Notes: generated by a model not told the origin, from the sequence alone. A stretch of 64,000 bases of DNA from Vulcanimicrobiota bacterium (GCA_003135555.1 PLCF01000062.1:1-64000), one strand, 5' to 3'; positions 3,844-46,545 are shown, numbered from the stretch's first letter. Made by a program: numbers and translations.

Positions 3844-3912
3844 TGTCATTTCCATCAATTAGTGCTACCGAACAGAAGTTAGTGCTACTGGTACAGGAGT
3901 TATTGCTACTGG
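3844..3912 (+). repeat. Transposon end (tns-distal) with three putative TnsB binding sites
   Basis: CAATTAGTGCTACCG (3856), ACAGAAGTTAGTGCTACTGG (3872), ACAGGAGTTATTGCTACTGG (3893). Confidence 0.9.
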
Positions 3913-4221
3913 CTAAAAATCTGAGCGGCACTGGACGAGCTAGCGAGGTCCGAACCTGCGCCCCTTCAGCCGGCTCGAAAACTCCGCGCGGCCGTTGCCC
4001 CATCGCCTGGGCTAGGTCCCGAATCCAGGGCGTCGGTCCGGTCAACCTGCGATGCGCGGACGCCGAATGATGACCGGCTCCGACCATCTGGGCAGCTCGA
4101 TTGGATCGCCGGCTTCGCAACGCCAGCCGGAAAGCAAAACCGCGCGCGAGTAGTCTACTCGCCGACGATACGATGCTTTTCGGCGTGGAAGGCGTACGGC
4201 AACACGCGGACCATTAAGCTC

Positions 4222-5064
4222 GTGCGATCTTCATCGGAGGCGATACGGGATACGGTCCCGTTCGGAACGCTAGACCAGCTCGAGAGTGGCCTGTGCTATT
4301 ACGTACGGCAGCGGATTCCTAAGGCAATCCCGATGGAACCGTACCACTGCAAGCCGCAGGCAATATGCGTGGAGTCAGCGGAATGCGACTTCACCGTCCC
4401 TCTACGCCATTGCATCCAAATGCTAGCCACATGGGACACACCGGATCACTTAAGGACGATCATCGGACGCCACCTCAGCACTCCGCAACACGTTGCCGTG
4501 TATGTCGTTGAAGATTCGGGTCAGATAGTGATCATGCCATGCGGGGCAATTCTGCAATCCTGCTATATGCCAACCGCGGCGTACCTCAGCGCGTGGCTAG
4601 AAGGGCCAGCCAGCTCCTTTGCTTGTGATAAGGTCATCTACAACGGTTTCGGGTTCTTCAATTACGACCAGTCATCATCGCTGCGCGTCTATCCTATTCG
4701 CGCCGCCAGGGATCGGGAATTTGCTGAGCGCGAAATATCCCAGCTGCTTCCGAGGGCGCTAACGTACGCATCGCGCGAGGGCGGCGAAATGCCATTCATC
4801 ATCCGGCCACCATTTCGGGGTCGGGTTCGAGTTCGCGGCAAGGCCGTCATCGACCATTGGGGCGAGAAAACGGTCCGGCTCTTCTTGAGTAAGATGTGGT
4901 TCTCACCGGCGAATCAGTTTGAGACCTTAGCGGGCACAGAGCTACGCGACGAAGTCGCGGCGCGAATCGCGTTCAGCCCCCGATTCACCTACTCGGGGGC
5001 CGTCGCATCACTTCCAGCGCTAGACCATACGCGCTATCCAAGCAATCGACGCAGCCCGTCTTGA
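4222..5064 (+). CDS. Hypothetical protein, possibly truncated TnsE-like N-terminal domain
   Basis: First ORF inside the distal end; segments VPFGTLDQLESG, IVIMPCGAILQSCY, PFIIRPPFRG resemble TnsE-like proteins from memory; frame open from 3925. Confidence 0.4.
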   Translation: MRSSSEAIRDTVPFGTLDQLESGLCYYVRQRIPKAIPMEPYHCKPQAICVESAECDFTVPLRHCIQMLATWDTPDHLRTIIGRHLSTPQHVAVYVVEDSGQIVIMPCGAILQSCYMPTAAYLSAWLEGPASSFACDKVIYNGFGFFNYDQSSSLRVYPIRAARDREFAEREISQLLPRALTYASREGGEMPFIIRPPFRGRVRVRGKAVIDHWGEKTVRLFLSKMWFSPANQFETLAGTELRDEVAARIAFSPRFTYSGAVASLPALDHTRYPSNRRSPS

Positions 5065-5144
5065 GGTTTAGGGCGGAGCTTTCTGCTGCCGGGACGCATC
5101 TTGAAGCAATCGAGGATCTGTCCAGCAGGTTGCCTCTCTACCCG

Positions 5145-5196
5145 AGCAACCTTGTCACCGTTGTCACGAGAAATTGACGTTGCCACGTTTGTCAAG
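5145..5196 (+). repeat. TTG(T/C)CAC-repeat site, copy 1
   Basis: AGCAACCTTGTCACCGTTGTCACGAGAAATTGAC; 30/34 identical to 15455-15488. Confidence 0.8.
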
Positions 5197-5616: not shown

Positions 5617-5770
5617 ACGCGCGTCCTTCGTCGCGTCTCCCTTCACGACCGATCGACCGTCAGGCGCAACTATTTGACGCCGACAGGCTGCGGCGCAATT
5701 GGGGGCCAAGCAAGAGACAACAGCGCCGAATACAGCGAAGCGCCACGACCTTTGGGTGAGATTTGCGGGC

Positions 5771-8700
5771 ATGACAGGAAAGAAGGCGGCGAAGACCAGT
5801 CGGATCGCTCAGCGCGCGTCAAAGATGCGAAGTCAAGGCGGCGGTCGCAGGGTATCTGCAGGCTTAGGATATCAGTATTCGTACGGCGCATTCCTGGCTG
5901 TGCAGGTCATCGCGCGCTCCGCGCCGCTTTGGGATCTCGACCCCTCGGTTGAAATTCAGAGTATTCTGACAGAGCAGGACGTCGCCGTTGATGATTTGGT
6001 CGCGCTAACTTCCAATGGCGGCTTCGCATTCGTTCAGGCAAAGCGCTCAGTTGATGTGTCGCCCAAGCCGGCATCACCATTCTACAAGGCGCTAAGCGGC
6101 TTCACGGAACTGTACATCGGCTTCGCAAAGGTTCTGCAAGCCCGCAACGCACCTCCCCGCTCATTTGATGTAGCACGAGATCGTCTCGTCTTTGCTGTTG
6201 GACGCCGCACGTCGAAGAACATCGTGGACGGCTTTCAATCTGTGTGCACAATCGCTCGATCCAGCGCTCCGATCGACAGTGCAGCGAACAAGCACACCGC
6301 GAACGCCTTGGCCACTGCGGCGACAATCATAGAGAACGCCTGGAAGAACCACACCGGCGCGAACGCGACGCCTGAAGAAGTGAGGTCCGTTCTAGCGTCA
6401 ATTTGGGTCCATCCTTGCGAATGCGACGATGGCGAGCGCGATCACGTCGCCGCACTCAATCAACTCCGGACCGTCGTGCTACCGGCAGCCAAAGATGGCC
6501 CGGTTTGGCAGCGCCTTAAAGCCTTGTGCCATCGCCACTCGAACATCGGCGGAGGCTTCGATCGCACGGCCCTCTACGCAGAAGTCCGTCAGGCGGGCGC
6601 GGACGTCCTTGGTTCGCAGGCCGATCATCGTGAGGACCGTGCCCGGATAGTGTCCGAATCGAAGCGGTTCGCCGACCGGTACCGTGCTCAAACATACGTT
6701 ACAATTGCCGGCGAACCGCTACGACTCCGCCCTGAAACGCAACGGCTCCTAAGCAGTGAAGCACAGCGCGGATCGCTCCTCGTCATCGGCCAGCCAGGCG
6801 TCGGGAAGACCGGAAGCGTTGTGACGTTATACGCGGCATGCCAAGAGGCGCAGGTTGAAGCTGCATTCGTTCCGGTCGAGAGGTTGAGAACAGGCGGTGG
6901 CAACTTAGAAAAGCTCTTCGGGCTGCGAAAACCGATGCGGGAGGTGATGACCGATTGGGGCGGGACGCAACCGGCGTTCTTTATCATCGACGGGCTCGAC
7001 GCCGCTCGTGGCATCGATGAACTCAATGACGTGGTGGAGGCACTATTTCAAATGGCGTCGTCCGCGTCGCCACGCTGGAAGTTCATCGTGTCGATGCGCT
7101 CTTATGATGCGCTCCGAGCGCGGCTCCAAAACACTGAGCTGCCGATCATTTTCCGCGTTACGGAAGAGGCTCCACAAATCTCGATGCGTGCAGAACTGGA
7201 GGGCATCAGATGTTTCGAAGTTCCGGAACTCACGAATGATGACCTGGCTCCAGCGCGCTCGAAGCTCAACGCCCTCGATGTCGCGCTTGGAAACCCCGAT
7301 GTCCTCAAGTTAGCCCGCATCCCATTCAATCTATGGTTGTTGATCGGACTGATCGAAGACGGCCTCGTCGGTTCCGAGCTGCAATCGATAACGACCCAGA
7401 TTCAGCTACTGAACAGTTACTGGAAACAACGTGTCGAGCGCGGCGATGAAACGATCGACCGTGAACGCCTCCTGACTCGTGCGTGCCAGTTAATGATTCA
7501 GGAAAGGGCGCTCACCTGCGATCGCAATGACCTTCTACAGTCGGGACAAGAAGAGCGTGTCGCTAACGACTTGTGCAGTATTGGCGTGCTCGACGAACTG
7601 CGTATGCCCGGTGCTTTTAGCGCGGCACAATACCGCTTTTCTCATAACACCCTTTTCGATTTCGCTGTGGCAAAGCGAATCCTAGCGCAACGCGGTGAGC
7701 TTGATCGGCTCCTAGCGGACAACCCTGGCGCACTCACCCTCATTGTGCCTAGCTTGCGCATGTTCTTTCAGGAACTGTGGGACGAGGGTGCCGGGGCGGG
7801 ACGTCGCGACCGCTTTTGGACGACCTTGCTCGATATCGCCGCCAACGAGGAGCTGCCCGCGGTCGCGAGCGTAATCGGCGTAGCCATCGCTTCACGCAAA
7901 GCCGAGGCTACCTCCGAAGTCTCAAAGCTCGTAGAAGGCCTGGATAATCCCCGGAGCCGGCGTGCCGCGCTTAGGATCATCGAATGGATTCACGGGTCGC
8001 TAGGGATGGATGGCGTCGACCCTTTCGCTAAAGCCGGCGAGCCGTGGGATTACCTCGCCAGGGCGCTCATGAATGATCCCGGCGACGGTGCTGACTGGGC
8101 GTCGTTTCGGCTCCAGTCCATGCTCTTGGAACGAGGCGGGCGCCTGAGTGAGGCGGCGCTTCAGAACGTCGCGACCGCCGCTCGCGAGCTCCTAAATCAC
8201 TTGCTCGCGTCTCCTGTGCGCAATGATCGCTTTATCTCGGTCGCAATAGCAACCGTCATGAAGAGCGCAGGAGCCGATGTAGCCGTGGCGGCCCGCGCTC
8301 TTCGCCCGCTGCTCGCCGCGAACTATAGACGAACGAATGCTTGGAGTGACATGCCAGCGATCGCGAGGGAGCTTTCGCGATTGCACGCTTCAGCGCCTGA
8401 CTTCGTCGCAGAAGTGTACGATGCTTGTTTTCATACCCAGGAGCTCTCCGAAGAGACGGTTAGCATCTCGCAAAGTCGCATTTTCGCGATGACCTCAAAC
8501 AGGCGCCAAGACCTTGACCACGCGAAGTGGCAGCTGGGCCGCGACTACCAAAGCTTCCTCGATGCCTCGCCAGTCGCCGCTACACGAGCTGTAGTCGCGG
8601 CCGTTGACGCGTATGCTAAGACACATAATGTCGCTAAATTAGGAGCCGGATGCGAAGTCCAGCTCGGCTCCATTAGTCGCCACGTCACGCCGGACATGAG

Positions 8701-9052
8701 CTCATCTTGGCTTGATACCATTCTTACGAAGCACGAACCCGCGTTCGATATGCTTGAAGCGTGGTGTAAGGGGATGGACCAGCTCTATCGCCAGGATACT
8801 CGCCTTTTTGAGGCGTGCTTTAACGACTTTATCGCGACGTCATGGAGTGCCGTTTACTGGCGCAAGCTGCTGTCCGCAGCCGCGCGGTACCCTGAAACGC
8901 TCGGCCGCGCCGTGTTTCCCCTGCTCACGCAGCGGCCAGTTCTTACAGGCTACGATACGAGCGACGCCGCCGCGGACGCGGTAACAGCCGTATACCCGTT
9001 GCTGTCGACTGAGGAGCGTGCCGCCATCGAGCACGCCATTCTGGCGATTTGA
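5771..9052 (+). CDS. PD-(D/E)XK nuclease + STAND/NACHT NTPase (Avs-like), N-terminal part
   Basis: N-terminal GLGYQ...VDDLV...FVQAK; Walker A GQPGVGKT; Walker B FIIDGLD; RIPFNL; RFSHNTLFDF. Confidence 0.8.
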   Translation: MTGKKAAKTSRIAQRASKMRSQGGGRRVSAGLGYQYSYGAFLAVQVIARSAPLWDLDPSVEIQSILTEQDVAVDDLVALTSNGGFAFVQAKRSVDVSPKPASPFYKALSGFTELYIGFAKVLQARNAPPRSFDVARDRLVFAVGRRTSKNIVDGFQSVCTIARSSAPIDSAANKHTANALATAATIIENAWKNHTGANATPEEVRSVLASIWVHPCECDDGERDHVAALNQLRTVVLPAAKDGPVWQRLKALCHRHSNIGGGFDRTALYAEVRQAGADVLGSQADHREDRARIVSESKRFADRYRAQTYVTIAGEPLRLRPETQRLLSSEAQRGSLLVIGQPGVGKTGSVVTLYAACQEAQVEAAFVPVERLRTGGGNLEKLFGLRKPMREVMTDWGGTQPAFFIIDGLDAARGIDELNDVVEALFQMASSASPRWKFIVSMRSYDALRARLQNTELPIIFRVTEEAPQISMRAELEGIRCFEVPELTNDDLAPARSKLNALDVALGNPDVLKLARIPFNLWLLIGLIEDGLVGSELQSITTQIQLLNSYWKQRVERGDETIDRERLLTRACQLMIQERALTCDRNDLLQSGQEERVANDLCSIGVLDELRMPGAFSAAQYRFSHNTLFDFAVAKRILAQRGELDRLLADNPGALTLIVPSLRMFFQELWDEGAGAGRRDRFWTTLLDIAANEELPAVASVIGVAIASRKAEATSEVSKLVEGLDNPRSRRAALRIIEWIHGSLGMDGVDPFAKAGEPWDYLARALMNDPGDGADWASFRLQSMLLERGGRLSEAALQNVATAARELLNHLLASPVRNDRFISVAIATVMKSAGADVAVAARALRPLLAANYRRTNAWSDMPAIARELSRLHASAPDFVAEVYDACFHTQELSEETVSISQSRIFAMTSNRRQDLDHAKWQLGRDYQSFLDASPVAATRAVVAAVDAYAKTHNVAKLGAGCEVQLGSISRHVTPDMSSSWLDTILTKHEPAFDMLEAWCKGMDQLYRQDTRLFEACFNDFIATSWSAVYWRKLLSAAARYPETLGRAVFPLLTQRPVLTGYDTSDAAADAVTAVYPLLSTEERAAIEHAILAI

Positions 9053-10662
9053 TGCCTAACGTGAACGCGCGCATCCGCAATCGACTACTTCACGCCATTC
9101 CGATTGAGCTCGCCGCAACGGACAGCGCTCGTAAGGCAATCGCTGCGCTTCCGGCGCCCGAAGAGCGGCGGCGGGCGGTCGAGGCGTTTACGCTGCCGTA
9201 TGGAGAGCGCGAATTCTTACAAGAGCGTGGCGTCGACCTCGATCAGCCTGCGAATGCCCGCTGCCGAGAAGCGCGGGATCGTGTCACCCCCTTCGTCACG
9301 CAGTATCGCGGACAGCGGCTCCCGCAAGATGCCGTCGCGGGCGTCCTTCCAGCTTTGCGATTGCTCCGCATTGCCCTAAGCGATCCGGCTGTGCACGAAG
9401 AGCAGGCTCGGGTCGGCTGGGACACGCTCGCGCAGGCTTGCGAGTTACTGGCGCCGGTACCTGAGTTGCCTCCAGATGTCGTGGTATTCGTGAGGCAAGC
9501 GATTGTCGATGCGCTAGCGACTGATCCGGGTGATTTCGATTCTAACTTCGACGAGCACTCAAGCTGGGGATCTCCGGCTCCGCATGTGCCCGCCGCGACG
9601 GCTGCAATGTATCTATATCCCGAGCATTCTAGCCCTGAGTCGGCCGATGCTGTGCGACGCGCGTCTTCTTCTCCTTTCCGTCCTGCGCGGGCTCAGGTCG
9701 CATCGCTCTTGCTTCGACTCCACAAAGTGGAGCCCGGCCTGATGTGGGAGCTCGCTAGACGCTACGCGTTCGAAGAGCCCAGTCCGGGAGTCGTCCATGC
9801 GTTTGTCGCGCGATCCCTTGGGCATCTCTTCATGCTCGACGCCCAGGAAGCAATGAGCTACCTAAGTGCCGCGGCTGAGCGCGCAGCACAAGGGGGTCCG
9901 ACTTGGCAGAACGTCTTGAGTTCCACACGGAGCCTTTACGTGTGGCGGTACCTCGGTGGGGAAACGGCTGCCGAACCCCCCGTTTTGAACCTACTCGATC
10001 GGCGAAATGAGGCGACGGATGCGGTCCGGTCCATGCTCTTCGACCTGCGGCGCTTCGTTCGAGAAGGTGATGCCTCGTCGATCATCGTTCGACGTAGTGT
10101 CGCGCTTCTAGAGACGTGTGCGGGACTGTTTAGTGACGACCTTGCGCAAATCGAAAAGGACGCACGGGAACGTCCCTTAACCGAAGGTGAAATCGCGCGC
10201 GCAAAGTCGGTATCAACGAATCTCCACGAATTGGCGAGTGAGCTGTACTTCGCATCAGGCGCATATTCGCGGCCGGACAACCCGAAGGCGAGACCGGATG
10301 CCGCTGACCTTCGTTTCCTGACGGACATTATGCCGACGTTGCGGCGCCTTACTCCCGTAGGCATGCCGGGCGTCGTCCATAGGCTGCTTGAGCTCATAGA
10401 ATTCTTCGTCGACGATCGGGCGGCTGAGCTGTTCCCAATCGTGACGAGCCTAATTCAAGCCGGCGCGAAGAACCAGTATCAATACGAGCATATGGGCGCC
10501 GAGCTCGCCGTGGGGCTTATCGAGCGATACATGGTGTCTTATCGTGATGTCGTCGAGAGCTCCGAGGAGAATCGCCGGGCGTTGATCCGCGCCCTGGATG
10601 TCTTTGCGTCGTGGCCTAACGCGGTCCGGCTTGTCTATGACTTTGATGAATTGTTTCGGTGA
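9052..10662 (+). CDS. Helical-repeat protein, probable C-terminal sensor part of the Avs-like protein
   Basis: ATG overlaps the upstream TGA (TGATG); predominantly helical sequence; no catalytic motif recognised. Confidence 0.65.
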   Translation: MPNVNARIRNRLLHAIPIELAATDSARKAIAALPAPEERRRAVEAFTLPYGEREFLQERGVDLDQPANARCREARDRVTPFVTQYRGQRLPQDAVAGVLPALRLLRIALSDPAVHEEQARVGWDTLAQACELLAPVPELPPDVVVFVRQAIVDALATDPGDFDSNFDEHSSWGSPAPHVPAATAAMYLYPEHSSPESADAVRRASSSPFRPARAQVASLLLRLHKVEPGLMWELARRYAFEEPSPGVVHAFVARSLGHLFMLDAQEAMSYLSAAAERAAQGGPTWQNVLSSTRSLYVWRYLGGETAAEPPVLNLLDRRNEATDAVRSMLFDLRRFVREGDASSIIVRRSVALLETCAGLFSDDLAQIEKDARERPLTEGEIARAKSVSTNLHELASELYFASGAYSRPDNPKARPDAADLRFLTDIMPTLRRLTPVGMPGVVHRLLELIEFFVDDRAAELFPIVTSLIQAGAKNQYQYEHMGAELAVGLIERYMVSYRDVVESSEENRRALIRALDVFASWPNAVRLVYDFDELFR

Positions 10663-10799: not shown

Positions 10800-11981
10800 C
10801 TAGGTCGCTGCAGTCCAGAGGTCTGGCAGGGTGTCCACGACCGGCAAGTAGAGGTCCGCGTAGTGCTGCAGTTCATGCCGCACGGCATCACGCGTGCTCG
10901 TGCCATTCGCTGTGCGGTACATGTGCATCATCATTCCGACGAACGCATCGGCGAAACGTTGTCGCGCTAGGTCAATGTGGAAGTACTCCTCGTAGGCCTT
11001 CGACACCCCTTCTTTCGTTGCATCCGAACCGAGAATCGCACGAAACCTCACGTTAGCCCGCGAGGTGAGTTCGAAGTGACGAAAGACTTGTTGCGCCAAG
11101 TAATAGCCGGTCAGTAGTATGCCGCAGTACTGGTCAACGAGTTTAATACTCGGCCGTTGACCGAAACGGACAATGATCTCGCCGTCAGCATCGAACTGCA
11201 TGCGGTGCCTTACTTGATTCTCCGTGCGTGCGCCGGGAGGTTCCTCGCCGTCCGCCATAAAGAACGCCTCGGCGAGCGTCTTCCGAATGGGCAGCGGCTC
11301 ATGGATGTGATTTTCTTTTCCGCGAGTTGTCGCTTCGAACGTCCTGAATAACCCATCGTCGTCTGATTCGAGCAGACGTGCCGCCCGGTAGACGGCCGGC
11401 GCTATCTCGATGCCGAAGAAGATGTCTGGATTGATTGATGTCGGTTGAATCGAAACGAATCGAATCTTGTTCTTGATGGGCGAGAGTTGCGGCTCCGTAT
11501 CTTGCCGTTGCTGGAGCATTTGGATGTCGCTTAGGCTGAGTTCTAGGGTCTCGTTCCCGCGTCGTATCGGAAGCCGCTTGCGGTCGCTGCCGAGGTACTC
11601 GAGTGGACCACGGTTGCTGGGTGCTACGCGTATCGCGATCAGCGCGTTCCCCGTCGCGTTGGGCGCAAGCCCGACCACCTCAAAATCGGGGGCCGGATGC
11701 ACCCAGGCGTTCACCGCGCTGCTGATGCCAAGAAGCGTCTGATGCGAGACATCCGGCGCTTTCGCAGCGTACGTCAGCGGTTGACCTTTGACCGGGTCCT
11801 CGATGCCGACCACGATGAGACCACCGTCGGCGTTCGCGAACGCGCAGACGTTGTACGCGATCTCGCGCGAGGGAATCTGTCGCTTGAACTCAAGCCGCTG
11901 GGTTTCTTCGTTCACCGCGGCGATTGCTTGGAACAGGTCGTCTACGGTGAACGCCCGCAGGTCGTCGGTGTAGGGGTTCAC
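10800..11981 (-). CDS. Schlafen/AlbA_2 domain protein with unknown C-terminal domain
   Basis: EETQRLEFKR...VCAFANADGGLIVVGIED; RRGNETLELS. Confidence 0.85.
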   Translation of the reverse strand: MNPYTDDLRAFTVDDLFQAIAAVNEETQRLEFKRQIPSREIAYNVCAFANADGGLIVVGIEDPVKGQPLTYAAKAPDVSHQTLLGISSAVNAWVHPAPDFEVVGLAPNATGNALIAIRVAPSNRGPLEYLGSDRKRLPIRRGNETLELSLSDIQMLQQRQDTEPQLSPIKNKIRFVSIQPTSINPDIFFGIEIAPAVYRAARLLESDDDGLFRTFEATTRGKENHIHEPLPIRKTLAEAFFMADGEEPPGARTENQVRHRMQFDADGEIIVRFGQRPSIKLVDQYCGILLTGYYLAQQVFRHFELTSRANVRFRAILGSDATKEGVSKAYEEYFHIDLARQRFADAFVGMMMHMYRTANGTSTRDAVRHELQHYADLYLPVVDTLPDLWTAAT

Positions 11982-12671: not shown

Positions 12672-12672
12672 C

Positions 12673-13347: not shown

Positions 13348-13357
13348 AGCCCGCGCC

Positions 13358-37109: not shown

Positions 37110-38213
37110 ATGGAGGGTGTCATGCAGACGCCGGATCCTAAGGTACTGAACGATGTCTATAGTCGATACAAGTTAAGCTTTTCGGAAATTCCAGAAGTTA
37201 GTGTTCCATCGGCCCATAGCGTTGAAATGGAACTGGTTTGCGCAAAGGAGTCGTATGCTGCCTATGCTGTTTATCCTGATTTGCCCGGAGACCCAATGCA
37301 TGACCGCGTTCCCGTGGCAAACAGCGCCTTGTTCGTCCCGGGTGCTCTCGATGTCGCAGGGTTCTTAGACGCGGCCGCGGGCGACTGGGAGAGCCCACGG
37401 GGTTATCGCGAGATCAAAACCGATCGCGCTGGCGCCTTGGTGATTTGGAAGGATAACCACGTGATCGTCGCCTTCCGCGGTACGGCCAATTGGCAGGATT
37501 GGATTCATAACGGCAATTCAAAGAAGATCTCTCCCCCAATCGGTGAGATCGGTGAGTACGGATCCCTTGTACTGCATATGGGCTTCTATGGCCTCACGGA
37601 AAATATATTTCCGGCAATTCTCCAAGCGATAATCTATCGTGCAACAGCGATACAGTCAAATTTGTCGCATCGCTCACCCCTAGTCCTGACACTTTGCGGG
37701 CACAGCCTGGGCGGGGCGCTCGCCCTATGCTTTGCTGCTAAGCTTCGAAAGCAAAAATTGGAGCCCGGCACGATACCAGGGCCCGTGCTAGGCGCTACCT
37801 ATACTTTCGGCGCTCCTCGCATCGGAAGAGGCTCGGTCTGGCGATTCATCGAGCGTCCTCACTATCGGCTCATTGTTTCGGGCGATCCGATACCGCGTTT
37901 TCCGCCCGGCTTCGACGAGGACTACGAGGCCACGTACCTCGGAAGGCCGACGCAACCCGTAAGTCAGCCGAAGTCGGTTCTTAAGAAAATATGGCGTGCC
38001 GCCGAATCTACGATTCTTAGCCGTGTAGATGTCAAATGCCATGATATGGAGATCTACATAGCTTCGATTACACAAAAGCTGGCTGCAACGAGACCCAATA
38101 TACTTTCAACGAACGCGCCGCCGCAAAGTCCAGCGAAAACTGATCTGACTACCAAACACCAGGAGTACCTTAAGAAACTTTCCGCTTTAAGGCCTCGTCT
38201 GCCGCGACGATGA
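37110..38213 (+). CDS. Lipase class 3 family protein
   Basis: VAFRGT, HMGF, GHSLGG, YTFGAPRIG, GDPIPRFP, HDMEIY. Confidence 0.92.
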   Translation: MEGVMQTPDPKVLNDVYSRYKLSFSEIPEVSVPSAHSVEMELVCAKESYAAYAVYPDLPGDPMHDRVPVANSALFVPGALDVAGFLDAAAGDWESPRGYREIKTDRAGALVIWKDNHVIVAFRGTANWQDWIHNGNSKKISPPIGEIGEYGSLVLHMGFYGLTENIFPAILQAIIYRATAIQSNLSHRSPLVLTLCGHSLGGALALCFAAKLRKQKLEPGTIPGPVLGATYTFGAPRIGRGSVWRFIERPHYRLIVSGDPIPRFPPGFDEDYEATYLGRPTQPVSQPKSVLKKIWRAAESTILSRVDVKCHDMEIYIASITQKLAATRPNILSTNAPPQSPAKTDLTTKHQEYLKKLSALRPRLPRR

Positions 38214-38520
38214 AGACTGTCCCCTCGACGAACATGAACAAGCGCAAAGCTTCGAGCGTCTCAATAGCGACGGACGGCAGGCAACGGTCCAGGTCGTCCA
38301 CCACTACTACCAATTGCTGGATGTCGGCGTCGACAAGCAGCTGGCGGAATTCTTCCCGAAAGCTATGAATCTTGTTGAGTGACATCGCGTTCCTGTGCGT
38401 CCTTGAGCCAAGCGTCATCGTCGGATGAGTCCGAAATGGCACCGCGGGCCGTTTCCAGTGCTCCTTCGGTGAGCAGGCTCGTGCCCGCGGTCGGGATCGC
38501 CAACGCGGCCGATGCCACCT
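38170..38520 (-). pseudogene. KAP P-loop NTPase (QatA-like) internal fragment
   Basis: LVVVVDDLDRCLPSVAIETLEALRLF...FIVAADE; no Walker A; both ends missing. Confidence 0.75.
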
Positions 38521-38881: not shown

Positions 38882-40363
38882 ATGAAGAGATTGAGGCCGC
38901 AGGACGTCGGCGGCATGCCGGTCGACGCGCTCCATCGGCTCGGGCTGGCGATGCCGGGCGTCGTCTCGCCGTCGGCCGAGGGCATCACCATCCGGGGCCG
39001 GGGGGCCGACCCGCGCGGCCTCTCCGTCCGTCTGCTCCTCGACGGCTCGAATCCGGGCGGCTTCGCGCGGTCGTGGTCCGGTGTCGAACCGCACAATCCG
39101 GGCAGCACGATGGATTTGGCCGGACGGGCTGAGGCGCGCCGCGTAGCGCGCGAACGGCTGCAGACCGGCCGACTCGGCGACTTCATCTGGCCGGTCGCGA
39201 CGGCCGCGCCGGATCACCGCTTCGCGATGCTCAACGACATCCTGGTCCCGGCGTTCTTCGACGAGCATCCGGGGGGCCAGATTCATCTCGTGGAGTGCGC
39301 GCCGGGATTCAATCGGTCGCTGGCGCTACTCAGCATCTTGCAGCGGGCGAATATCCTGAAGACGGCAGATCCCGCCACGCTTCAGGCCTATCTCGGCAAA
39401 TCGGCGATGTCGACGTTCGGCCTCAACGTCCCGGCGGAAGCGCTCTTCTCGGCGCTCACGTTCGGCCTGTCGTGGTCGTACCCGACGCTTCCTGGCTTCG
39501 TCGGCACGTGCGGGCACGAACGCTTCCTAGTGTTTCTTCTCGAAACGCCCTACGAGGTCGAAACGCCGGACGCCACCTCCTTCGAGCGGATGCTGCCCAA
39601 CATGCTCAACATCATGGGGGAGCGAATCGAGACGAGTCCGCTCGCGCCGCCCGACTACGTCCCTCCCCCTCTCACGCGCCCGCTAGACCGCCGTCGCTTC
39701 ACGGTCGACGAGATGGCGACGTATCTGCGCGCCTACGTCGACGCGCTCGGCGAGACGTTCGCGTGGCTGGGCGACCTGGACAACTACGGCAAGGAAGCTG
39801 AGCCCGACGTCCTCGACGTCGACTTCGCGCAGGCGACATGGCTCACGTTCTTCGTCCTGCTGGCGGTGCAGTTCGAAATCATCACGAGCCGCGTGCACTT
39901 CGCGCGCAAGTTCGCGTTCTTCGATTCGCTCGAACTCTACACGGCGCTCGTCACGTCGAACTTCGGCGCGCAGACGAACACCTGGATCTCGCTCGCGTCG
40001 GACGCGCACGCGCGGCAGACGCTGGTACCGCAGTTGAGCCGCTTCGGCGCCGTCGGTGCCGAACTCGCGCAATCCGTCGCCGCCATCCGCGACCGCGCGA
40101 GCGATGTCGTGACGCGCGGACTGCTCTACCCGCGCGACGCCGCCGGCAACGTGCTCTTCGGCGGGTCGTCGCTGCCGATCGATGCATTCGAGCCGAAGCT
40201 CTACCGCGAGCTGCGGAACACGCGCCACGGCTTCGCGATCCGGAACGCCGCCGTCCTGAACGTCCACACGGGCGATATCAGCAACGATCTGCCCGACCTC
40301 AGCCTCGCGATGTTCCTTGGCCTGCTCGCCGACAAGACGCCGTTCACGCTGAAGCGCGCGTAA
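38882..40363 (+). CDS. Hypothetical protein, possible C-terminal HEPN
   Basis: 493 aa, strong GC3 bias; YRELRNTRHGF. Confidence 0.75.
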   Translation: MKRLRPQDVGGMPVDALHRLGLAMPGVVSPSAEGITIRGRGADPRGLSVRLLLDGSNPGGFARSWSGVEPHNPGSTMDLAGRAEARRVARERLQTGRLGDFIWPVATAAPDHRFAMLNDILVPAFFDEHPGGQIHLVECAPGFNRSLALLSILQRANILKTADPATLQAYLGKSAMSTFGLNVPAEALFSALTFGLSWSYPTLPGFVGTCGHERFLVFLLETPYEVETPDATSFERMLPNMLNIMGERIETSPLAPPDYVPPPLTRPLDRRRFTVDEMATYLRAYVDALGETFAWLGDLDNYGKEAEPDVLDVDFAQATWLTFFVLLAVQFEIITSRVHFARKFAFFDSLELYTALVTSNFGAQTNTWISLASDAHARQTLVPQLSRFGAVGAELAQSVAAIRDRASDVVTRGLLYPRDAAGNVLFGGSSLPIDAFEPKLYRELRNTRHGFAIRNAAVLNVHTGDISNDLPDLSLAMFLGLLADKTPFTLKRA

Positions 40364-40660: not shown

Positions 40661-40860
40661 TTGAGGCTCAATGCTGAATGATCAGCCCGGCATTCGTTTG
40701 AGCGCGCTGATGACTCCGCGCTTCATCGTCCCGCGATCGACGGCGCGGTGGCCCTTAGAGTTAATATCAAGGCTGCTATCGCGACCGACAACAACGAAAT
40801 GGTCGTACGCGCCCCTGCGGGCAGGTGTCGGGCTGATCCTGCTGAGAAGCTGACCCTCAA
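40661..40860 (+). ncRNA. Candidate structured RNA, multibranch
   Basis: Outer stem TTGAGG/CCTCAA; 15-bp stem 40680-40694/40824-40838; five internal hairpins. Confidence 0.45.
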
Positions 40861-41618
40861 TGCCGGACGAGTATAGCGGCGGAGTTTTGGGAGGCCAAAA
40901 GCCGTGCCCGAAGTGCCGAGCGATCGTGCCGGCCGTCGCGAAGATTTGCGCGACATGCGGCTCCTCGTTGCCACGATCACCCGTGTCGGATCTCGGTGCT
41001 CCGGCAAAGCCTTCGATCAAGACATGCGCCTCTTGCGGCTCAACCGTGCCGATCTCGGCGAGGATTTGCGCGTCCTGCAACTCGTACTTCCCGCGCGAAA
41101 CCAAATCGCAGTCATCGCCGGACTACGGAATCACAGATGCAGCTCCGACGCGCCACCCCTCTCCATCGGGTAGCCCGGTAGCCGGACTCGTCATCATCGC
41201 GCTTGTTGTGGCAGTCGGGTTCGCCGGGTTCAAGTGGTACGCGGGTCAAAATCCGGAGGCAGCCGGCCGCGCTTCGGCGCGCGCGTCTACAGGCGATGGG
41301 CCCACCGCAGATCCGAGTACTGGAACATTTTCAGGTTCAGACGAAATATCTGCTTTGCCGACACCAGCGCAAGATCTGCTACGTTTTGTCGGTCGGACCG
41401 GACATACCGTTGAAGAGAATGCAGAAATGGGCTGTGAAGATCGCTACACGGGCTCGGGCCACTACCCGGGCACGATTCACGTATCTCCAGCCGACCTTGG
41501 TGCCAGTTATGTTTCATGGACTACGTGCGGCTTTACGTTCAAATTCCGGATTTCAGCCGACGGAAATCACGTCGCTGCTCTCAACAATCCGGCCCTTTCA
41601 GCGCTTGGAGGAGAATAG
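40860..41618 (+). CDS. Double zinc-ribbon membrane protein
   Basis: CPKC..CATC, CASC..CASC, one transmembrane helix. Confidence 0.8.
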   Translation: MPDEYSGGVLGGQKPCPKCRAIVPAVAKICATCGSSLPRSPVSDLGAPAKPSIKTCASCGSTVPISARICASCNSYFPRETKSQSSPDYGITDAAPTRHPSPSGSPVAGLVIIALVVAVGFAGFKWYAGQNPEAAGRASARASTGDGPTADPSTGTFSGSDEISALPTPAQDLLRFVGRTGHTVEENAEMGCEDRYTGSGHYPGTIHVSPADLGASYVSWTTCGFTFKFRISADGNHVAALNNPALSALGGE

Positions 41619-41861: not shown

Positions 41862-43013
41862 TCAACGCAGCAAGTGCCCTAGATGGCGCTTACGGAGCAC
41901 GTCGGAGCCTCCAAGGAGCTTCGATACCTCGCTCTTGCGAGGCCGTGCGCCTTGGGATCGAAGATGGCGAATCGCGGCCTCGATTTCTTCGATGCTGGGG
42001 CTGTAAGTAGAGCGGTCAAAGTACTCTCGCACGATGCTCCAGTACCAGAATGGAGCGTGCGGCAAGTGTTTACCTAGATAGCTCGCGGACAGGCCGAGGC
42101 GCGTCGACCTTTCGATGAACTGGAGCGGCCAGTCACGTAGTAAGAACGCGGCCATTCGCATAAGGCGCGCGCGCTGAGGAACTGGGAGGAGCTCAAATAG
42201 TTGTAGACTCCCTCCGAAGGCCGGCTCGAAATCCGCGATGGCGAGCTCAGTGCCGAGATGCTTGCGAAGCGCTCTCGCCGCTCGACCGGAGGATAGCACG
42301 ACAAGCAGCACCCGCAACCCAGCGAAGTAGAGATGCGGAAAGAGGACTTGGTCAGCGATCATCGCGGTTCCACTAGCAACAATGTCGCCGAGGCCCTTCG
42401 TAAACTCCACTGCGTCTGGCGGCGCAGCTCTACCATCGATCAGGCGAAGGTCGCTTTCACATTCGAAGCACGTCGTAAGAAGTCGCGCGTCAAGTGCGGC
42501 TCGGTCGCCAAGATCGCGGCGGTGGAAATGCACTGGCAAAAGACATCGTGGGCATCGATCGCGCAACTCCAGTGCGTGTCGCACGCAAACGGTCGAGAAA
42601 GCTAGGCGCCATGTTCGGCGATAGTATGGTTGTTCGGATAAGCATGCCGGGCAGAATTGTTGCCCAAACCGCCGCCTGAGCCGGTGATAGACTCCGATCG
42701 GCATGATCCACGGCGTGTGTCCGTTAGGTTGGTGTTGCTCGAATACAACGCCCTCTAGTGACGCTAGGCTGGTCTGAAATGCCGCCGTCATAGGAGTGCT
42801 GGTGCCCCGCGCCATCTCCTCTAGCACGGACTGCGGGGCGAAGTTGTCGATATCTCGATTCCAAAGGTCACGTCCGGGCCACGCCAGCGATGTAAAAGTA
42901 TGCAGCTTGAGTCCGTTGCCGGCAGCAGTCCGAACGATCCATGAGGTTAACAGCTCATCCTGTAGAGGCTTCGGGTGAAACGGCCAGAGATTGCCGCGAT
43001 CTCTGGCCGCCAC
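41862..43013 (-). CDS. tniQ: TniQ family target-selector protein
   Basis: PKPLQDELLTSWIVR, QFCPACL, YRRTWRL, CVRH, CPRC, CFEC. Confidence 0.93.
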   Translation of the reverse strand: MAARDRGNLWPFHPKPLQDELLTSWIVRTAAGNGLKLHTFTSLAWPGRDLWNRDIDNFAPQSVLEEMARGTSTPMTAAFQTSLASLEGVVFEQHQPNGHTPWIMPIGVYHRLRRRFGQQFCPACLSEQPYYRRTWRLAFSTVCVRHALELRDRCPRCLLPVHFHRRDLGDRAALDARLLTTCFECESDLRLIDGRAAPPDAVEFTKGLGDIVASGTAMIADQVLFPHLYFAGLRVLLVVLSSGRAARALRKHLGTELAIADFEPAFGGSLQLFELLPVPQRARLMRMAAFLLRDWPLQFIERSTRLGLSASYLGKHLPHAPFWYWSIVREYFDRSTYSPSIEEIEAAIRHLRSQGARPRKSEVSKLLGGSDVLRKRHLGHLLR

Positions 43014-43016: not shown

Positions 43017-43883
43017 CTACAGAGTCCTCTCGCGGTTGCGTCCAGAGGGCGACGTATAACCCACTCGATCGAGTACCGAAATAGTGATTTGTTCCTTGCG
43101 GGACTCGATGGCGTGAAGCGCTGCGCGCCTTAGAAGCGTACTTATCTCACCAATAGTGCCCTCCGTCATGCTCAGGACCTTTAGTGCGATACGTTCGGCT
43201 GTCAGGTTCGACGCCTTCTGAAGGGGAAGCGTTTTCTCGAAGGTAGCGAGCAACCGAAGGTATTCGTCGCCCATCCTCCACTTCGGCAGGATCGCCGGCT
43301 CGAACCGACTCGCGAGCTGTGGATCAGTATTGATAGCAGCGAACGCTTTCTGAATCCCCACGCCGACGATCGGGATCATCAGCTCATTGCCCATTTGCTT
43401 GATCATGGCCAAGAACTGCCGTTGCCGCTGGCGATTTCCAGAGAGGATGTGGTGAATCTCATCGATGATCAGAACGCGAACGCCGACTGTTTCTAGTAGC
43501 CGCATGACCTGAAACTCTCTTTGGTCTAAGCGACTGGCAGCCTTAAACGGGGCGCGCAGAGCATGCAGGATAGCGTTGTAAAAGCGGCCCTCTTCCGGCA
43601 CATGCGGCGCTTCCACGAGCAGCACCGGAAAGCAAGACGCATCGCCCTCAAGGTTGAGCCGCGGCGGATGCTCTCGCGCGAATTTGCGCACGATCATCGT
43701 CTTGCCGTTGTTCGTCTCGCCGACGATTAGTACGTTTCCCATCCTATGCGTCTTGGGCATCGTCAGCAGGTCTTCGAGCTGGGCCAATATCTGCAGAGCC
43801 CGCGAGTATGCCATCCAGCGGACGCCGCGGATAGCTGCGATGCGCTCGGAGTCATCTTGAACCGTGCCGCCGCCGGTGATCAC
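43017..43883 (-). CDS. tnsC: TnsC/TniB AAA+ ATPase
   Basis: GETNNGKT, VLIIDEIH, DPQLASRF; GTGA overlap with tnsB. Confidence 0.95.
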   Translation of the reverse strand: MITGGGTVQDDSERIAAIRGVRWMAYSRALQILAQLEDLLTMPKTHRMGNVLIVGETNNGKTMIVRKFAREHPPRLNLEGDASCFPVLLVEAPHVPEEGRFYNAILHALRAPFKAASRLDQREFQVMRLLETVGVRVLIIDEIHHILSGNRQRQRQFLAMIKQMGNELMIPIVGVGIQKAFAAINTDPQLASRFEPAILPKWRMGDEYLRLLATFEKTLPLQKASNLTAERIALKVLSMTEGTIGEISTLLRRAALHAIESRKEQITISVLDRVGYTSPSGRNRERTL

Positions 43884-45745
43884 GCGTCCTCGATCTCGAA
43901 CGGCTCAATGTCGGAGCGTGGAAGAATCCCCACGTTGTCCCCAGACTCTGGCAACATAGTATGGCTGACGACAAGGCTAAGGCGCGGGCGTCGCTCGGTG
44001 GACCTTCTCCTCTCGGCGGCGCGCCGCACCGCCTTAGTCCTGCCAGCAGCCTCTTCTTGCTTCTGCCGCAGACGCTCGTACGATTCGAAAATGGCGTCCT
44101 CGTCAACATGCTCGTTGGCGTCCTTCGCCAGCTCAACTGCACGTCTATGCTCCCAGATGCTCATCGGCGGCCGTGACAAATTACGATACGGGATCGAGAA
44201 ATACTGTCGGAGATCTTCGTTCCAGAAGTAAATCGTGCTAATATCTCGCGGATCTCGCCGAAACACGAATTCCTTCGCTTTGCCGTCGACCTTCATGTCG
44301 CCGAACGGAACAAGCACCTCATCAAAGTAGGTGATATTGTCAATCTGGACACCATAGTTTTGTATGGTGCGTAATTCGAGCGGCAGAAAGTCCAGGCGCA
44401 GTCGGTCGCTCTCGAAGCGACGCCGCATGCCGTAGGGCAGGCGGCCGCCCTTGCCCACCGTAGCATCTTGCCAGCGCTGAAGCGGGGACATCTTGATGCC
44501 CGCATGTACTTTTTGGTGGTACACGCCAGTTATGTACTCGGCCATCCATGATTCGAGCTCCGCCAGGGTCATCACCGCGCGCTTCGCCGAGTCGTATTCT
44601 CCGCGCTCTGCCGGGCTCGAAAAGGTCGCGCCGGGCAAGGTCTGAAGCGCCTTACTCAGAGTGCCCATCATCCGCTCGATGTGGCCGCCATAATGAGGTG
44701 TCGCTACCGGGCGAAACTGGATGTCTATATCATATTGTTGACACGCACGCCGCAGCATCGTGCCGCGAAACTCCTTCGCGTTGTCGACGTGGATTTTCGA
44801 CGGGAGCCCCCAGCATGGCCACTTATTGGTAATGTTGCGCCGTGCAAGCCAGGCTTCTTTAGGATAGATAGCGTGCGAAAGTGCGAGACCTGTTGAAAGG
44901 GCGCCGACTGGGTCGAGGGATATACAGAAGCCGAGCACCATCCGGCTGTAGACATCGAACACCAAAGTAATGAACGCGCGATCGATCGGGCGCCGGAACT
45001 CTTCGTCCACAAGCATGACGTTGAGCGGCGTGTGATCTATTTGGACCAGCGAAAGCGGCCCCTGTGCCTCGTCAAACGTTCCGGGCCTCAGAGTGTGCCG
45101 GTCCCTTGCGATCTTGGAATGAGCGCGCCGGCGTAGCAGATCGTACTCGGTAATTTGCGCGATTCTGGCTCGCACCGTGTTTGCGTGCGGCGGTAGAATC
45201 CCAGCGTTTCGACATCGTCGTCCGACTTCGAGAATCGTCGCTTGCGCCGTCGGCTGCTGCACCGTCAGGTAAAAGTCCTCGATCGAAGCCTTCAGTATTA
45301 CCTCCGCATCCGGGCGGAGGCGCGCCCTTCCGCGCCCGCCGCGTTGGCTTAACAGCGGTAGAAGCGATGAGAGCTTTCCCGATGAGCGAAAGACACGGCG
45401 CCAACGATACAGAGCTGATGCCTCGAAGCCGAATTGGGACGCACGTTGCTCAAAATCGTGACGCGCGTGTCTTCTGTCGTCGAGGAACGGCTTTATGATC
45501 TCAAGCCTCTCGCGAGCCATTGCCCAATCCCGCGCTGTAACTAACGTCAGTTCAGGCGCCAGGTTCGGTTTGGTAGTCGCTGGAGGCACGGGACGAAGGT
45601 CTGGGATCGCTAGGCGTTCTGGAAGACCTGTCTTCGTATCTTGGGCGAGTACCGAAGTGAGGTCGAGCACGCGCATGATCTGGTAGTGCCGTCCGTCAAC
45701 CGTCACTTCTGCGCCTGGCTCAACAACCACGTCGTCTGTTTTCAT
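43880..45745 (-). CDS. tnsB: TnsB DDE transposase
   Basis: VQIDHT, IHVDNAKEF, GHIER; DPRDIS C-terminal domain; ATGA overlap with tnsA. Confidence 0.95.
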   Translation of the reverse strand: MKTDDVVVEPGAEVTVDGRHYQIMRVLDLTSVLAQDTKTGLPERLAIPDLRPVPPATTKPNLAPELTLVTARDWAMARERLEIIKPFLDDRRHARHDFEQRASQFGFEASALYRWRRVFRSSGKLSSLLPLLSQRGGRGRARLRPDAEVILKASIEDFYLTVQQPTAQATILEVGRRCRNAGILPPHANTVRARIAQITEYDLLRRRAHSKIARDRHTLRPGTFDEAQGPLSLVQIDHTPLNVMLVDEEFRRPIDRAFITLVFDVYSRMVLGFCISLDPVGALSTGLALSHAIYPKEAWLARRNITNKWPCWGLPSKIHVDNAKEFRGTMLRRACQQYDIDIQFRPVATPHYGGHIERMMGTLSKALQTLPGATFSSPAERGEYDSAKRAVMTLAELESWMAEYITGVYHQKVHAGIKMSPLQRWQDATVGKGGRLPYGMRRRFESDRLRLDFLPLELRTIQNYGVQIDNITYFDEVLVPFGDMKVDGKAKEFVFRRDPRDISTIYFWNEDLRQYFSIPYRNLSRPPMSIWEHRRAVELAKDANEHVDEDAIFESYERLRQKQEEAAGRTKAVRRAAERRRSTERRPRLSLVVSHTMLPESGDNVGILPRSDIEPFEIEDA

Positions 45746-46401
45746 GGTGTCTCTCGCCGGAGCAAGAGCTCCGTGTTCAAGGTCAGCGGCTCCGTGAGGC
45801 ACGCCGAGACAATGGTGCTCTGCGACAGATGATGCCAAAGTGTCGGGACCAGCTCTGCCCTGTAATCCGGATCATCGTCGAACTCGGAAAGAAGGGCGCC
45901 AACGCTAATCGTCCCGAGACGCTTCAGGGCGGCGATCAGGACCGCTGTGTGCTCGCGATCAGGTTCGTGCCTGCGGAATGGCAGTAAGAACTTCGCATTT
46001 TGGAGGACCGGGGTGCGAATCTCGACCTCCGTCATTATCTGGTACTTCCAACCTCGTTGCCAGGCGTACGCCATCGCAGCACGCAGCCTCGGCTTGTATT
46101 CGCACCACCGCTCGAAGAGCTCGTTGCGATACTTTACGTCACAAAGCAGCGGCGGCCGGCCGAGGCGGTCGTCATACTCGATGTAGAAGTCGGGCACGCC
46201 GCGGCGGACGTCTCCCCGGGGCCCTCGGTATTCCAGACGAAGCGGCTGAGCGTCGTATCGAACTACACCCGCGTCGAATTCGAGAAGGGTCGCAAAATCG
46301 CGCTCTAATGTGGATTCGACCCCAACCATTTGACGGGTCTTCGCGCTCGCAACAAAGCCTCGAACACCCCGACCTCTGGCGGGAATCCGGCGCACGCTCA
46401 C
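45742..46401 (-). CDS. tnsA: TnsA endonuclease
   Basis: ESTLERDF, QPLRL, VPDFYIEY, CDVKY, TEVEIR. Confidence 0.93.
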   Translation of the reverse strand: MSVRRIPARGRGVRGFVASAKTRQMVGVESTLERDFATLLEFDAGVVRYDAQPLRLEYRGPRGDVRRGVPDFYIEYDDRLGRPPLLCDVKYRNELFERWCEYKPRLRAAMAYAWQRGWKYQIMTEVEIRTPVLQNAKFLLPFRRHEPDREHTAVLIAALKRLGTISVGALLSEFDDDPDYRAELVPTLWHHLSQSTIVSACLTEPLTLNTELLLRRETP

Positions 46402-46420
46402 GAGGTCTTCCTCCGTGAAA

Positions 46421-46545
46421 CTGGTTGCACCAATTGTCGTGACTCTTCCAACTGGTAGCGATAACTCCTGTTAGCCAGTAGCGTTAACTTCTGTGAATCG
46501 GGCCGCTAGGAGGCTGCACAGTAGCACGAACTCGCGGAATTGACA
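46421..46545 (-). repeat. Transposon end (tnsA-proximal) with four putative TnsB sites
   Basis: Minus strand TGTCAATTCC, GAGTTCGTGCTACTG, ACAGAAGTTAACGCTACTGG, ACAGGAGTTATCGCTACCAG, CAATTGGTGCAACCAG. Confidence 0.9.

Follow-up and report, generated by a model that had tools for sequence, protein, structure and literature searches.

The 64,000-nucleotide stretch of DNA analysed here (hereafter the window; PLCF01000062.1:1-64000 of assembly GCA_003135555.1), from a peat bacterium of the uncultured phylum Vulcanimicrobiota, contains a 42.7-kb Tn7-like transposon at positions 3844-46545 that splits comM, the gene for a YifB-type Mg-chelatase-like AAA+ ATPase. The 5' part of comM (2972..3843, plus strand) matches the Pfam families ChlI and Mg_chelatase (positions 1-95) and TIGR00368 (positions 2-285 of 499), and the 3' part (46546..47217, plus strand, in a frame running from 46540) matches Mg_chelatase (93-206), Mg_chelatase_C and the remainder of TIGR00368 (YifB; 281-499). 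The break lies in the codons of a Gly-Gly-Gly stretch, 60 nt 5' of the codon for the Walker B aspartate. The 5' part ends just before the Walker B motif (VLYLDE), and its frame continues for six codons into the element and stops at 3862; the motif is coded at 46594-46611, its Asp codon beginning 60 nt past the last base of the element. Scripted deletion of 3844-46550 yields a single open frame for a ComM/YifB protein of 512 aa. No second comM was found in the host assembly, in which the sole other match was a 26-bit fragment.

Both termini of the element are of the TGTCA type, the left reading TGTCATTTCC from 3844 and the right, in reverse complement, reading TGTCAATTCC up to 46545; the two ends agree at 9 of their first 10 bases and 14 of their first 20. 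Within the left end (3844..3912, plus strand) the terminal TGTCATTT is followed by three predicted 20-nt repeats that resemble TnsB-binding sites (3852-3871, 3872-3891 and 3893-3912), arranged head-to-tail over 3852-3912. The right end (46419..46545, minus strand), which terminates in ...GGAATTGACA, carries copies in the opposite orientation, three of the predicted TnsB sites being clear (46453-46466, 46476-46489 and 46519-46532) and one, at ~46419-46432, degenerate. The 14-nt degenerate motif AGTTANYGCTACYR, with at most two mismatches, has nine matches in the 64-kb window against 2.73 expected, a number reached by none of 100 shuffles. The two ends account for six of these nine, three per side and inverted, and the fourth right-hand site fails the motif threshold. 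The pentanucleotide GGCGG directly precedes the left terminus (3839..3843) and stands again directly outside the right one (46546..46550). TGT...ACA termini, arrays of TnsB sites and a 5-bp duplication are the hallmarks of Tn7-like elements, which use heteromeric transposases, and here the near-identical inverted termini bound a block of lower G+C (~52-67% over most of 4001-46000, compared with ~65-72% in the flanks). The original prediction, made for this DNA from its sequence, had claimed exact ends, a GGCGG duplication, restoration of comM in frame upon removal of the element, and three plus four internal binding sites. The first three claims are confirmed to the base, as are the three left-hand sites, but the right end holds three clear sites and a weak one rather than a full set of four.

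The transposition module adjoins the right end and consists of four minus-strand genes without internal stops. The endonuclease gene tnsA (45742..46401) is recognized by the Pfam models Tn7_TnsA-like_N and Tn7_Tnp_TnsA_C and by NCBIfam TnsA_like; its product keeps 12 of the 15 near-invariant residues of the family alignment and departs from them at Y68G, E88D and F120Y, of which E88D falls in what is read as a PD-(D/E)xK-type motif, with which the change would still be compatible. All 37 near-invariant residues are kept in the DDE transposase encoded by tnsB (43880..45838; Pfam Mu-transpos_C and, weakly, rve; PADLOC TnsB), and Asp268, Asp352 and Glu388, taken to be the DDE triad, are all retained. 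The gene tnsC (43017..43883) encodes a short TniB-type AAA+ regulator of 288 aa (Pfam TniB, E 3.4e-73) with 14 of 14 near-invariant residues, Walker A (Gly-Lys 60-61) and Walker B (Asp-Glu 141-142). The only recognizable target-selector gene is tniQ (41862..43013; Pfam TniQ, E 5.9e-24), whose 383-aa product gave an AlphaFold model with a predicted local distance difference test score of 87 and a predicted template modelling score of 0.82. The top Foldseek matches of this model are TniQ proteins of CRISPR-associated transposons (CASTs) and the Tn7 TnsD-TnsC-DNA complex, and a sequence search of the PDB returned TniQ entries only. In PADLOC, both TnsB and TnsC match V-K CAST models best. The element therefore combines TnsA and a DDE TnsB with an AAA+ TnsC and a protein of the TniQ/TnsD family, as Tn7-like transposons do, and the uninterrupted tnsABC-tniQ set that had been predicted is borne out by four stop-free frames in which the conserved residues are mostly kept. 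The host genome, a 3.57-Mb metagenome-assembled genome (MAG) in 98 contigs that is 84% complete, has one TnsB and one TniQ only, both belonging to this element.

Evidence that the insertion is real comes from metagenome contigs. Nine public runs match part of a 1-kb stretch over the left junction, and the contigs of four of these were compared with window positions 2344-5343. In run X1, which may be the source of the assembly, a 20.6-kb contig spans the left junction without a mismatch over the whole compared stretch. Run X2, likewise a possible assembly source, contains occupied and empty alleles together: a 3242-nt contig (depth 8.4) runs from 3814 into the element, and a 182-nt contig (depth 30) extends up to 3843 and then continues for 25 letters identical to window positions 46551-46575. 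A 1384-nt contig (depth 142) of run X4, from another sample of the same study, matches 3174-3843 with one mismatch and is followed by 30 letters identical to 46551-46580, and in run X5, from another study, contigs of more distant relatives also pass from 3843 into the right flank. Only contigs that continue into the right flank were used as evidence of an empty site; the zero depth of runs X4 and X5 over 3844-5343 was not counted. Because the empty sites hold GGCGG exactly once, as the duplication predicts, the element boundaries are right to the base, and because an exact empty site stands beside an occupied one, the insertion is genuine and polymorphic. That both alleles occur with flanks showing a single difference in 670 nt argues for a recent event; the element, of the cut-and-paste TnsA+TnsB type, appears to be a new arrival in its lineage. 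The search for empty comM alleles in relatives, named beforehand as a check, was successful in congeners as well as in the same metagenome: comM is uninterrupted in the majority of congeners (frames longer than 500 aa are numerous, and that of G026 is 94% identical), and this TniQ was not found in any of the 36 congeners searched. A defence-gene island is thus on the move in a natural population of peat bacteria from a poorly known, uncultured phylum.

The position in comM is programmed across the family to which the element belongs. Its TniQ has 116 homologues in the protein collection, most of 330-430 aa, the best of which are 50-51% identical. A scan of species-representative genomes returned 309 TniQ relatives; the 80 best loci were retained, and by their titles these derive from Acidobacteriota, Vulcanimicrobiota, alpha-, beta- and gammaproteobacterial genera, Bacteroidota genera, Verrucomicrobiales, Trueperaceae, Binataceae and others. 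A tnsA gene lies upstream of tniQ in 60 of the 80, and in 36 of these 60 the 3' half of comM is found at most 1 kb from tnsA and on the opposite strand, the same arrangement as in the window; in 31 of the 36 the similarity starts within residues 1-4 of the comM 3' fragment in the window. The other 24 comprise nine dual-tniQ loci, none of which adjoins comM, four with less than 150 nt of upstream sequence available, four in which the comM half is 1.6-3 kb away, one that abuts the 5' half of comM in reverse, one with the 5' half only, at its far end, four that show nothing, and L090, in which comM from residue 79 on lies 1.5 kb upstream of tnsA. An identifiable Walker B Asp-Glu pair is present in 43 comM 3' fragments, and in 31 of them an ACA terminus stands 57-63 nt before the Asp codon, with 16 at 60 nt, the distance in the window, and nine at 59 nt. 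Of the 20 loci in which tnsA gave no match, six from Sphingomonas (L050, L075, L077, L078, L082 and L083) have the comM 3' half abutting tnsB, and these loci, in which TnsA is not detectable, may be TnsA-less derivatives that have kept the same target. Two of the 36, L052 and L076, abut comM at about residue 80, and together with L090 and L089 they form a sub-clade of the TnsB tree (Shimodaira-Hasegawa-like approximate likelihood-ratio test, SH-aLRT, 99), which suggests a second programmed position within comM.

The TnsB tree (65 rows, rooted on L107, a Tn6022-type module from an Acinetobacter plasmid; 17 of the 80 loci were dropped as their TnsB was missing, short or interrupted) is a quick one with several long branches and was used for local grouping only. 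In it the window's element clusters (SH-aLRT 96) with three from MAGs whose titles name Vulcanimicrobiota or Eremiobacteraeota; of these three, one is in comM and two have dual tniQ genes. Insertion in comM is scattered over the whole tree, which, with L107 as its outgroup, offers no view on nesting within the Tn6022 family; two further plasmid loci, L108 and L109, are degraded tni modules and were excluded. The Tns proteins might have fallen outside the comM-targeting clades, making the site a coincidence; instead they sit inside a large comM-inserted set. Insertion into comM across phyla had been foreseen, and this stands, but the case is not an isolated one, as relatives occupy the same position of comM in many phyla.

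Other insertions at this gene were observed alongside the Tn7-like elements. In G034, a member of the same genus, a ~19-kb island interrupts comM at the Walker B codons (L020:1840-1990 and L021:7780-7930), with about seven comM codons repeated at both junctions; it encodes a 568-aa serine recombinase, a D5/Toprim primase-helicase, a TIR effector of the CAP12/Pycsar type and a SIR2-like DUF4917 protein, and is therefore a second, unrelated kind of defence island at comM in the genus. At L022 (G027) a full comM stands between two additional partial copies, one of the 3' part (residues 22-221) and one of the 5' part (residues 3-190), and at L023 (G019) the 3' part of comM abuts sequence without a Tn7-type end; both look like further traces of elements at comM. 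In the window itself, another small island may lie just past comM, at 48692-51406, where the G+C is 0.56-0.57 and two large minus-strand open reading frames (ORFs; 526 and 374 aa) lack Pfam matches.

In Tn6022, the model element of comM, the site is read by TnsF (also Orf3 or TniE), a protein of ~480-500 aa with zinc fingers and an inactivated tyrosine-recombinase fold, encoded in an operon with tniQ. As a query for TnsF we took the 480-aa cysteine-rich 'hypothetical protein' that follows tniQ in L107 and that fits the 481-aa TnsF described in PMC11014353. With this query, TnsF was not found in the window by tblastn or by four jackhmmer rounds over all stop-to-stop frames of at least 50 aa. 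The same two methods agreed on matches in four of the 90 fetched loci (L074, L092, L051 and L055). Nor was TnsF found in the 84%-complete host genome or in 61 genomes of the class with a 604-aa homologue as the query, which in the control genomes recovered itself and a 31%-identical fusion. Because only four of 90 loci have TnsF, and because two other comM-inserted elements of the class are without it, its absence appears to be a trait of the family and not a private loss. The genes that the elements of the phylum have in common are those for TnsA, TnsB, TnsC and TniQ alone. No conserved ORF follows tniQ across the 80 loci (none is common to more than four, and none of these involves the window), and in the window no ORF on the tniQ strand follows tniQ, the ~1.5 kb downstream containing only a convergent zinc-ribbon ORF. 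The element contains no CRISPR-like array or Rfam match, and Pfam and PADLOC returned no Cas family in it besides the Tns models.

Where TnsF does occur it takes two forms. In L074 (9866-12805), L092 (2-2788) and L051 (9971-12016) TniQ is fused to an N-terminal part of TnsF in frames of ~680-980 codons; one TniQ-TnsF fusion is reported in the available text of Faure et al. (PMC10293859). The fusion-bearing elements L051 and L074 occupy the position in comM that elements without TnsF also use, L092 being cut by the end of its contig, and in the TnsB tree the fusion-bearing relatives lie among TnsF-less elements. In L055 a separate 604-aa homologue is encoded on the other strand (2691-4502), just outside a comM-inserted Tn7-like element and separated from it by a 28-residue comM fragment, an arrangement that may represent tandem occupation of comM by a Tsy-like and a Tn7-like element.

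Candidates for other selectors were also considered. A protein of ~600 aa recurs at the distal end of 27 relatives, as detected with a hidden Markov model (HMM), and from its position and the available text of PMC11406308 is probably a TnsE homologue; a PDB sequence search with the ~530-aa distal protein of one relative gave nothing useful. The HMM built from this distal protein matched no ORF of the window at E values up to 10. At the left end of the window's element, the place where relatives have the TnsE-like gene, stands a plus-strand ORF of 280 aa (4222..5064) with no function assigned by similarity; it was rejected as a diverged TnsE, having no likeness to the TnsE-like HMM and no Pfam, PADLOC or Atlas lead. 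A 493-aa ORF (38882..40363, plus strand), with a host-like G+C of 0.88 at third codon positions, likewise has no function assigned by similarity. It was rejected as an analogue of TnsF or TnsE and is treated as cargo: it has no Pfam, NCBIfam or PADLOC match and no relative in the fetched loci, and its Atlas model is poor, the best lead reaching 0.87, short of the 0.9 from which Atlas counts a match as more than a lead. Finally, the C-terminal helix-turn-helix of TniQ (residues 340-375) was rejected as the reader of comM, being conserved in the family alignment but confined to a subclade that includes dual-TniQ loci not at comM. Neither a TnsF gene in operon with tniQ nor a TnsE homologue (plasmid-targeting pathway) on the opposite strand, both features of the Tn6022 family, was thus detected in the window. 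With neither a TnsF nor a TnsE-like gene detected, TnsA, TnsB, TnsC and the 383-aa TniQ appear to be all that targeting relies on.

For Tn7 and CASTs it is established that a selector binds its target, TnsC assembles from there toward the insertion point, and insertion follows at a fixed distance with the right end proximal. In the window the right end faces the 3' half of comM, with Walker B 60 nt away. Because this geometry fits that of Tn7 and CASTs, we propose a TniQ complex that would read the Walker B region and a TnsC that would act as the ruler. In such a scheme TniQ-centred machinery would recognize the conserved comM coding sequence around Walker B, TnsC would bridge the ~60 bp and measure the spacing, and TnsA and TnsB would insert the element, right end nearest the recognized site, at the upstream Gly-Gly codons with duplication of 5 bp; the insertion would truncate ComM before Walker B and bring in ~38 kb of mainly anti-phage defence cargo. 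We consider it highly probable that this is a genuine Tn7-like element of a Tn6022-related family with programmed, TnsF-less targeting of comM. That TniQ by itself is the selector is a proposition to which we would give close to an even chance; TniQ would then read DNA directly, and Walker B would be the putative anchor. Slightly less than an even chance is given to its extension to most of the comM-targeting clade, by which TnsA, TnsB, TniB-type TnsC and a TniQ of 330-400 aa would suffice for insertion ~60 bp upstream of Walker B, the short TniQ core reading DNA, and TnsF would be a lineage-specific addition or a repeatedly lost module.

Several observations weigh against these readings. In the work of two groups (PMC10293859 and PMC11014353), TnsABC and TniQ were insufficient for Tn6022 to target comM and TnsF was required as well, and a TniQ of 383 aa is within the size range that Faure et al., in the available part of PMC10293859, call too short for target selection of its own. 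The C-terminal three-helix motif of TniQ is missing from most comM-inserted relatives and has only a 12.8-bit, chance-level match in Pfam; because this motif is limited to a subclade and lacks a significant Pfam match, no DNA-reading part of TniQ has been identified. With the host genome at 84% completeness, a selector gene outside the element may have escaped detection. The closest comM-inserted relative among the best 80 loci, L030, stands 42 nt, not 60 nt, from the Asp codon. Activity at the present day is not assured, since TnsA differs at three of 15 near-invariant positions, including E88D. The contig comparison covers the left junction, the right flank being seen only through empty-site contigs, and as to competence of the lineage, no ComEC was detected in the 84%-complete host genome, although 32 of 40 congeners have it.

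The requirement of Tn6022 for TnsF, the lack of a DNA-binding extension common to comM-targeting TniQ proteins and the incompleteness of the host genome all speak for a further selector that escaped recognition, either a cargo or host protein acting in trans or a TnsF analogue too diverged to be found, with TniQ a mere adaptor as in Tn6022 and CASTs. The available text of Faure et al. (PMC10293859) points the same way, remarking on numerous loci whose short TniQ has no identifiable partner and suggesting that their selectors are recruited in trans. Such a factor, if of the host, would have to be conserved over many phyla and always indicate the same comM position, however, and neither the elements of the phylum, which share only TnsA, TnsB, TnsC and TniQ, nor the 80 loci, in which nothing else recurs beside tniQ, supply a candidate; TnsF-like proteins were also lacking in the 61 class genomes, in which the search was backed by a working positive control. 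We regard a hidden selector as unlikely, though it is the rival to be taken most seriously. Either a short TniQ reads DNA directly or such a selector exists, and either outcome would revise the picture of how Tn7-like elements choose their targets; if the four proteins do suffice, they would form a compact, protein-guided, site-specific integration system working in many phyla.

It could also be that the element is an ordinary member of the Tn6022 family which, once inserted, shed tnsF and tnsE and has become a relic unable to move. The missing TnsF and TnsE-like genes, the ~1.5 kb 3' of tniQ devoid of an operon partner, the three unusual TnsA residues and some decay in the cargo (a split PDC-M54A gene and a QatA fragment) are what such a history would leave behind. 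Both ends, the duplication and the four tns frames are nevertheless intact, and the polymorphism of the insertion against almost identical flanks argues for a recent event; we judge a relic to be quite improbable. Least credible of all, and in our estimate scarcely worth entertaining, is an artefact of assembly or a chance hit in comM. The MAG consists of 98 contigs, and the runs that hold the junction may be those from which it was assembled, but the exact empty site with a single GGCGG recurs in contigs of other samples and of another study, the occupied junction is reproduced without a mismatch, and dozens of related elements lie at the same site. TnsF-less, programmed targeting of comM by a genuine transposon remains the explanation we favour.

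For the host, the direct reading of the sequence is that ComM function is lost: the truncation precedes Walker B, and because the 5' fragment is without Walker B and everything after it, the ATPase would be inactive. The home site of Tn6022-family elements is likewise inside comM, which they disrupt. The disruption of comM lowers natural transformation in other bacteria, as the available parts of PMC10293859 and PMC9881144 report, and by analogy transformation may be impaired in this host, which has a gene for DprA on the same contig as the element.

The cargo spans ~38 kb and consists mostly of defence genes by PADLOC and Pfam, about half of the ORFs having no match. Next to the left-end ORF lies a candidate defence NTPase, PDC-M54A (5699..10662, plus strand; PADLOC), which is one protein in the PADLOC model and here is divided between an ORF at 5699-9052, matching positions 2-1083 of 1657 (E 9.8e-161), and one in a different frame at 9049-10662, matching positions 1097-1657 (E 1.6e-80), with 4 bp (9049-9052) common to both; the split may reflect a frameshift, an error of sequencing or a natural arrangement as two genes. 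It is followed on the minus strand by a Schlafen AlbA_2-domain protein (10800..11981; PF04326, E 3.9e-12) and a HEPN AbiU2-like protein (19033..20094; PF18734, E 2.7e-6, 27.4 bits against a cut-off of 26.8). A three-gene minus-strand operon with overlapping stops and starts (21428..25247) begins with a UvrD-like helicase (23853-25247; PF13361/PF00580 and the GajB-like UvrD model of PADLOC) and continues with a DarT single-stranded DNA ADP-ribosyltransferase (23206-23856; PF14487, E 6.7e-19, and the PADLOC DarT model) and a 593-aa ADP-ribosylglycohydrolase (21428-23209; PF03747, E 3.5e-31). The canonical partner of DarT, DarG, is a macrodomain protein; here its place is taken by the glycohydrolase, with the helicase first in the operon, and the three genes may constitute a variant DarT toxin-antidote module.

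Further along the window, on the plus strand, are a CapH-like helix-turn-helix protein (25996-26376; PADLOC capH, E 2.8e-11, and Pfam HTH_3), a CapP-like M78 peptidase (26366-26902; PADLOC capP, E 1.3e-28, and Pfam Peptidase_M78) and a TIR-domain protein (27156-28538; PADLOC PDC-S66, E 1.5e-34, and ThsB, E 4.1e-19; Pfam TIR_2). The dual-tniQ element L058 of the same phylum encodes an M78 peptidase and a TIR protein at 12449-15595 that are 28% and 37% identical, respectively, to the pair at 26366-28538, and by this similarity an M78-TIR defence module appears to be common to the otherwise differing cargos of the two elements. The remaining genes with matches encode a homologue of the defence protein PD-T4-7 (34797..35711, minus strand; PADLOC, E 4.1e-29), a class 3 lipase-domain protein (37110..38213, plus strand; PF01764, E 8.7e-17), a 90-aa remnant of QatA, a KAP NTPase (38170..38442, minus strand; PADLOC QatA, E 1.2e-30, profile positions 181-245 of 646; Pfam KAP_NTPase), and a protein with three zinc-ribbon repeats (40860..41618, plus strand; Pfam DZR, E 2e-9), whose CxxC motifs are coded by 32-nt repeats. 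No resistance gene was recognized in PADLOC and Pfam scans of the window, in keeping with the predicted cargo of defence rather than resistance genes, and 'defence island' is a fair label even with part of the cargo decayed.

The nearest known relatives are Tn6022 and the AbaR elements, with which the window's element shares a TnsA+TnsB transposase, a short TniB-type TnsC, a short TniQ (~360-380 aa), TGT/ACA ends, a 5-bp duplication and insertion inside comM near Walker B that inactivates the gene. Compared with the Tn6022-type module L107 (TnsA, TnsB, TniB and a 361-aa TniQ), TnsB and TnsC are each 38% identical, TnsA 31% and TniQ 27%; the expected kinship of the Tns proteins with Tn6022 is supported at this level. 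The last 68 residues of TniQ are unrelated to L107 TniQ, as the alignment stops at residue 315, and these elements differ further in that no TnsF or TnsE-like gene was detected in the window, in cargo (defence as against resistance) and in the phylum of the host. According to the available parts of PMC1326220 and PMC11014353 the Tn6022 duplication is ACCGC, whereas here it is GGCGG, and the Tn6022 site is placed within ~50 bp of Walker B in what is available of PMC10293859, compared with 60 nt upstream of the Asp codon in the window. TnsF binds a comM fragment and depends on 10 bp of the sequence that encodes Walker B, as described in the accessible sections of PMC10293859 and PMC11014353; TnsE is called almost universal in comM-targeting elements in the corresponding part of PMC11406308, and the supplement of PMC10293859, as far as available, lists loci with tniq, tnse and tnsf tags and no attachment sites. 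The original prediction had seen the same strategy at work as in Tn6022 and AbaR, and this holds for the targeting and disruption of comM in an unrelated high-GC host, but not for the mechanism, as no TnsF was found.

Tn7 itself resembles the element in its selector acting on a conserved coding sequence, fixed-distance insertion with the right end proximal, several TnsB sites and a 5-bp duplication. Its TnsD, of ~500 aa, has C-terminal DNA-binding domains. Tn7 with TnsABC and TnsD inserts downstream of glmS, in contrast, and leaves the gene intact, uses TnsE for plasmids and has a long TnsC that is not TniB-like. Type I-B1 and I-F3 CASTs have comM as a home site as well, directed there by a guide RNA, which is read as convergent evolution in the available portions of PMC9881144 and PMC11406308, but the window differs in that no cas genes, CRISPR-like array or Rfam match were detected, so that the element does not group with CASTs by gene content. 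The spacing from selector to insertion in CASTs is given as 50-60 bp in the available text of PMC8649781, which also unites Tn6022, Tn5053 and type V-K CASTs as a single clade. Tsy elements, tyrosine-recombinase transposons with an active TnsF at comM (Faure et al. 2023), target the Walker B region too, whereas neither a tyrosine recombinase nor a TnsF homologue was found in the window, and its Tn7-type ends and 5-bp duplication show DDE transposition. In its defence-dominated cargo the element is like the Tn7-like defence carriers of Benler et al. (2021, PMC8649781), the available main text of which makes no mention of comM. Tn7-like elements in comM, the convergence of several element types on this gene and defence genes as Tn7-like cargo are already in print, and a Tn7-like element in comM that carries defence genes was to be expected from such work; in the literature we found no description of a broad comM-targeting clade without TnsF, nor of transposons from this phylum, the closest published statement being the remark of Faure et al. 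on short-TniQ loci that lack a recognizable partner. Mobile elements land in comM recurrently, and Tn6022, with TnsF as the reader, is the model case.

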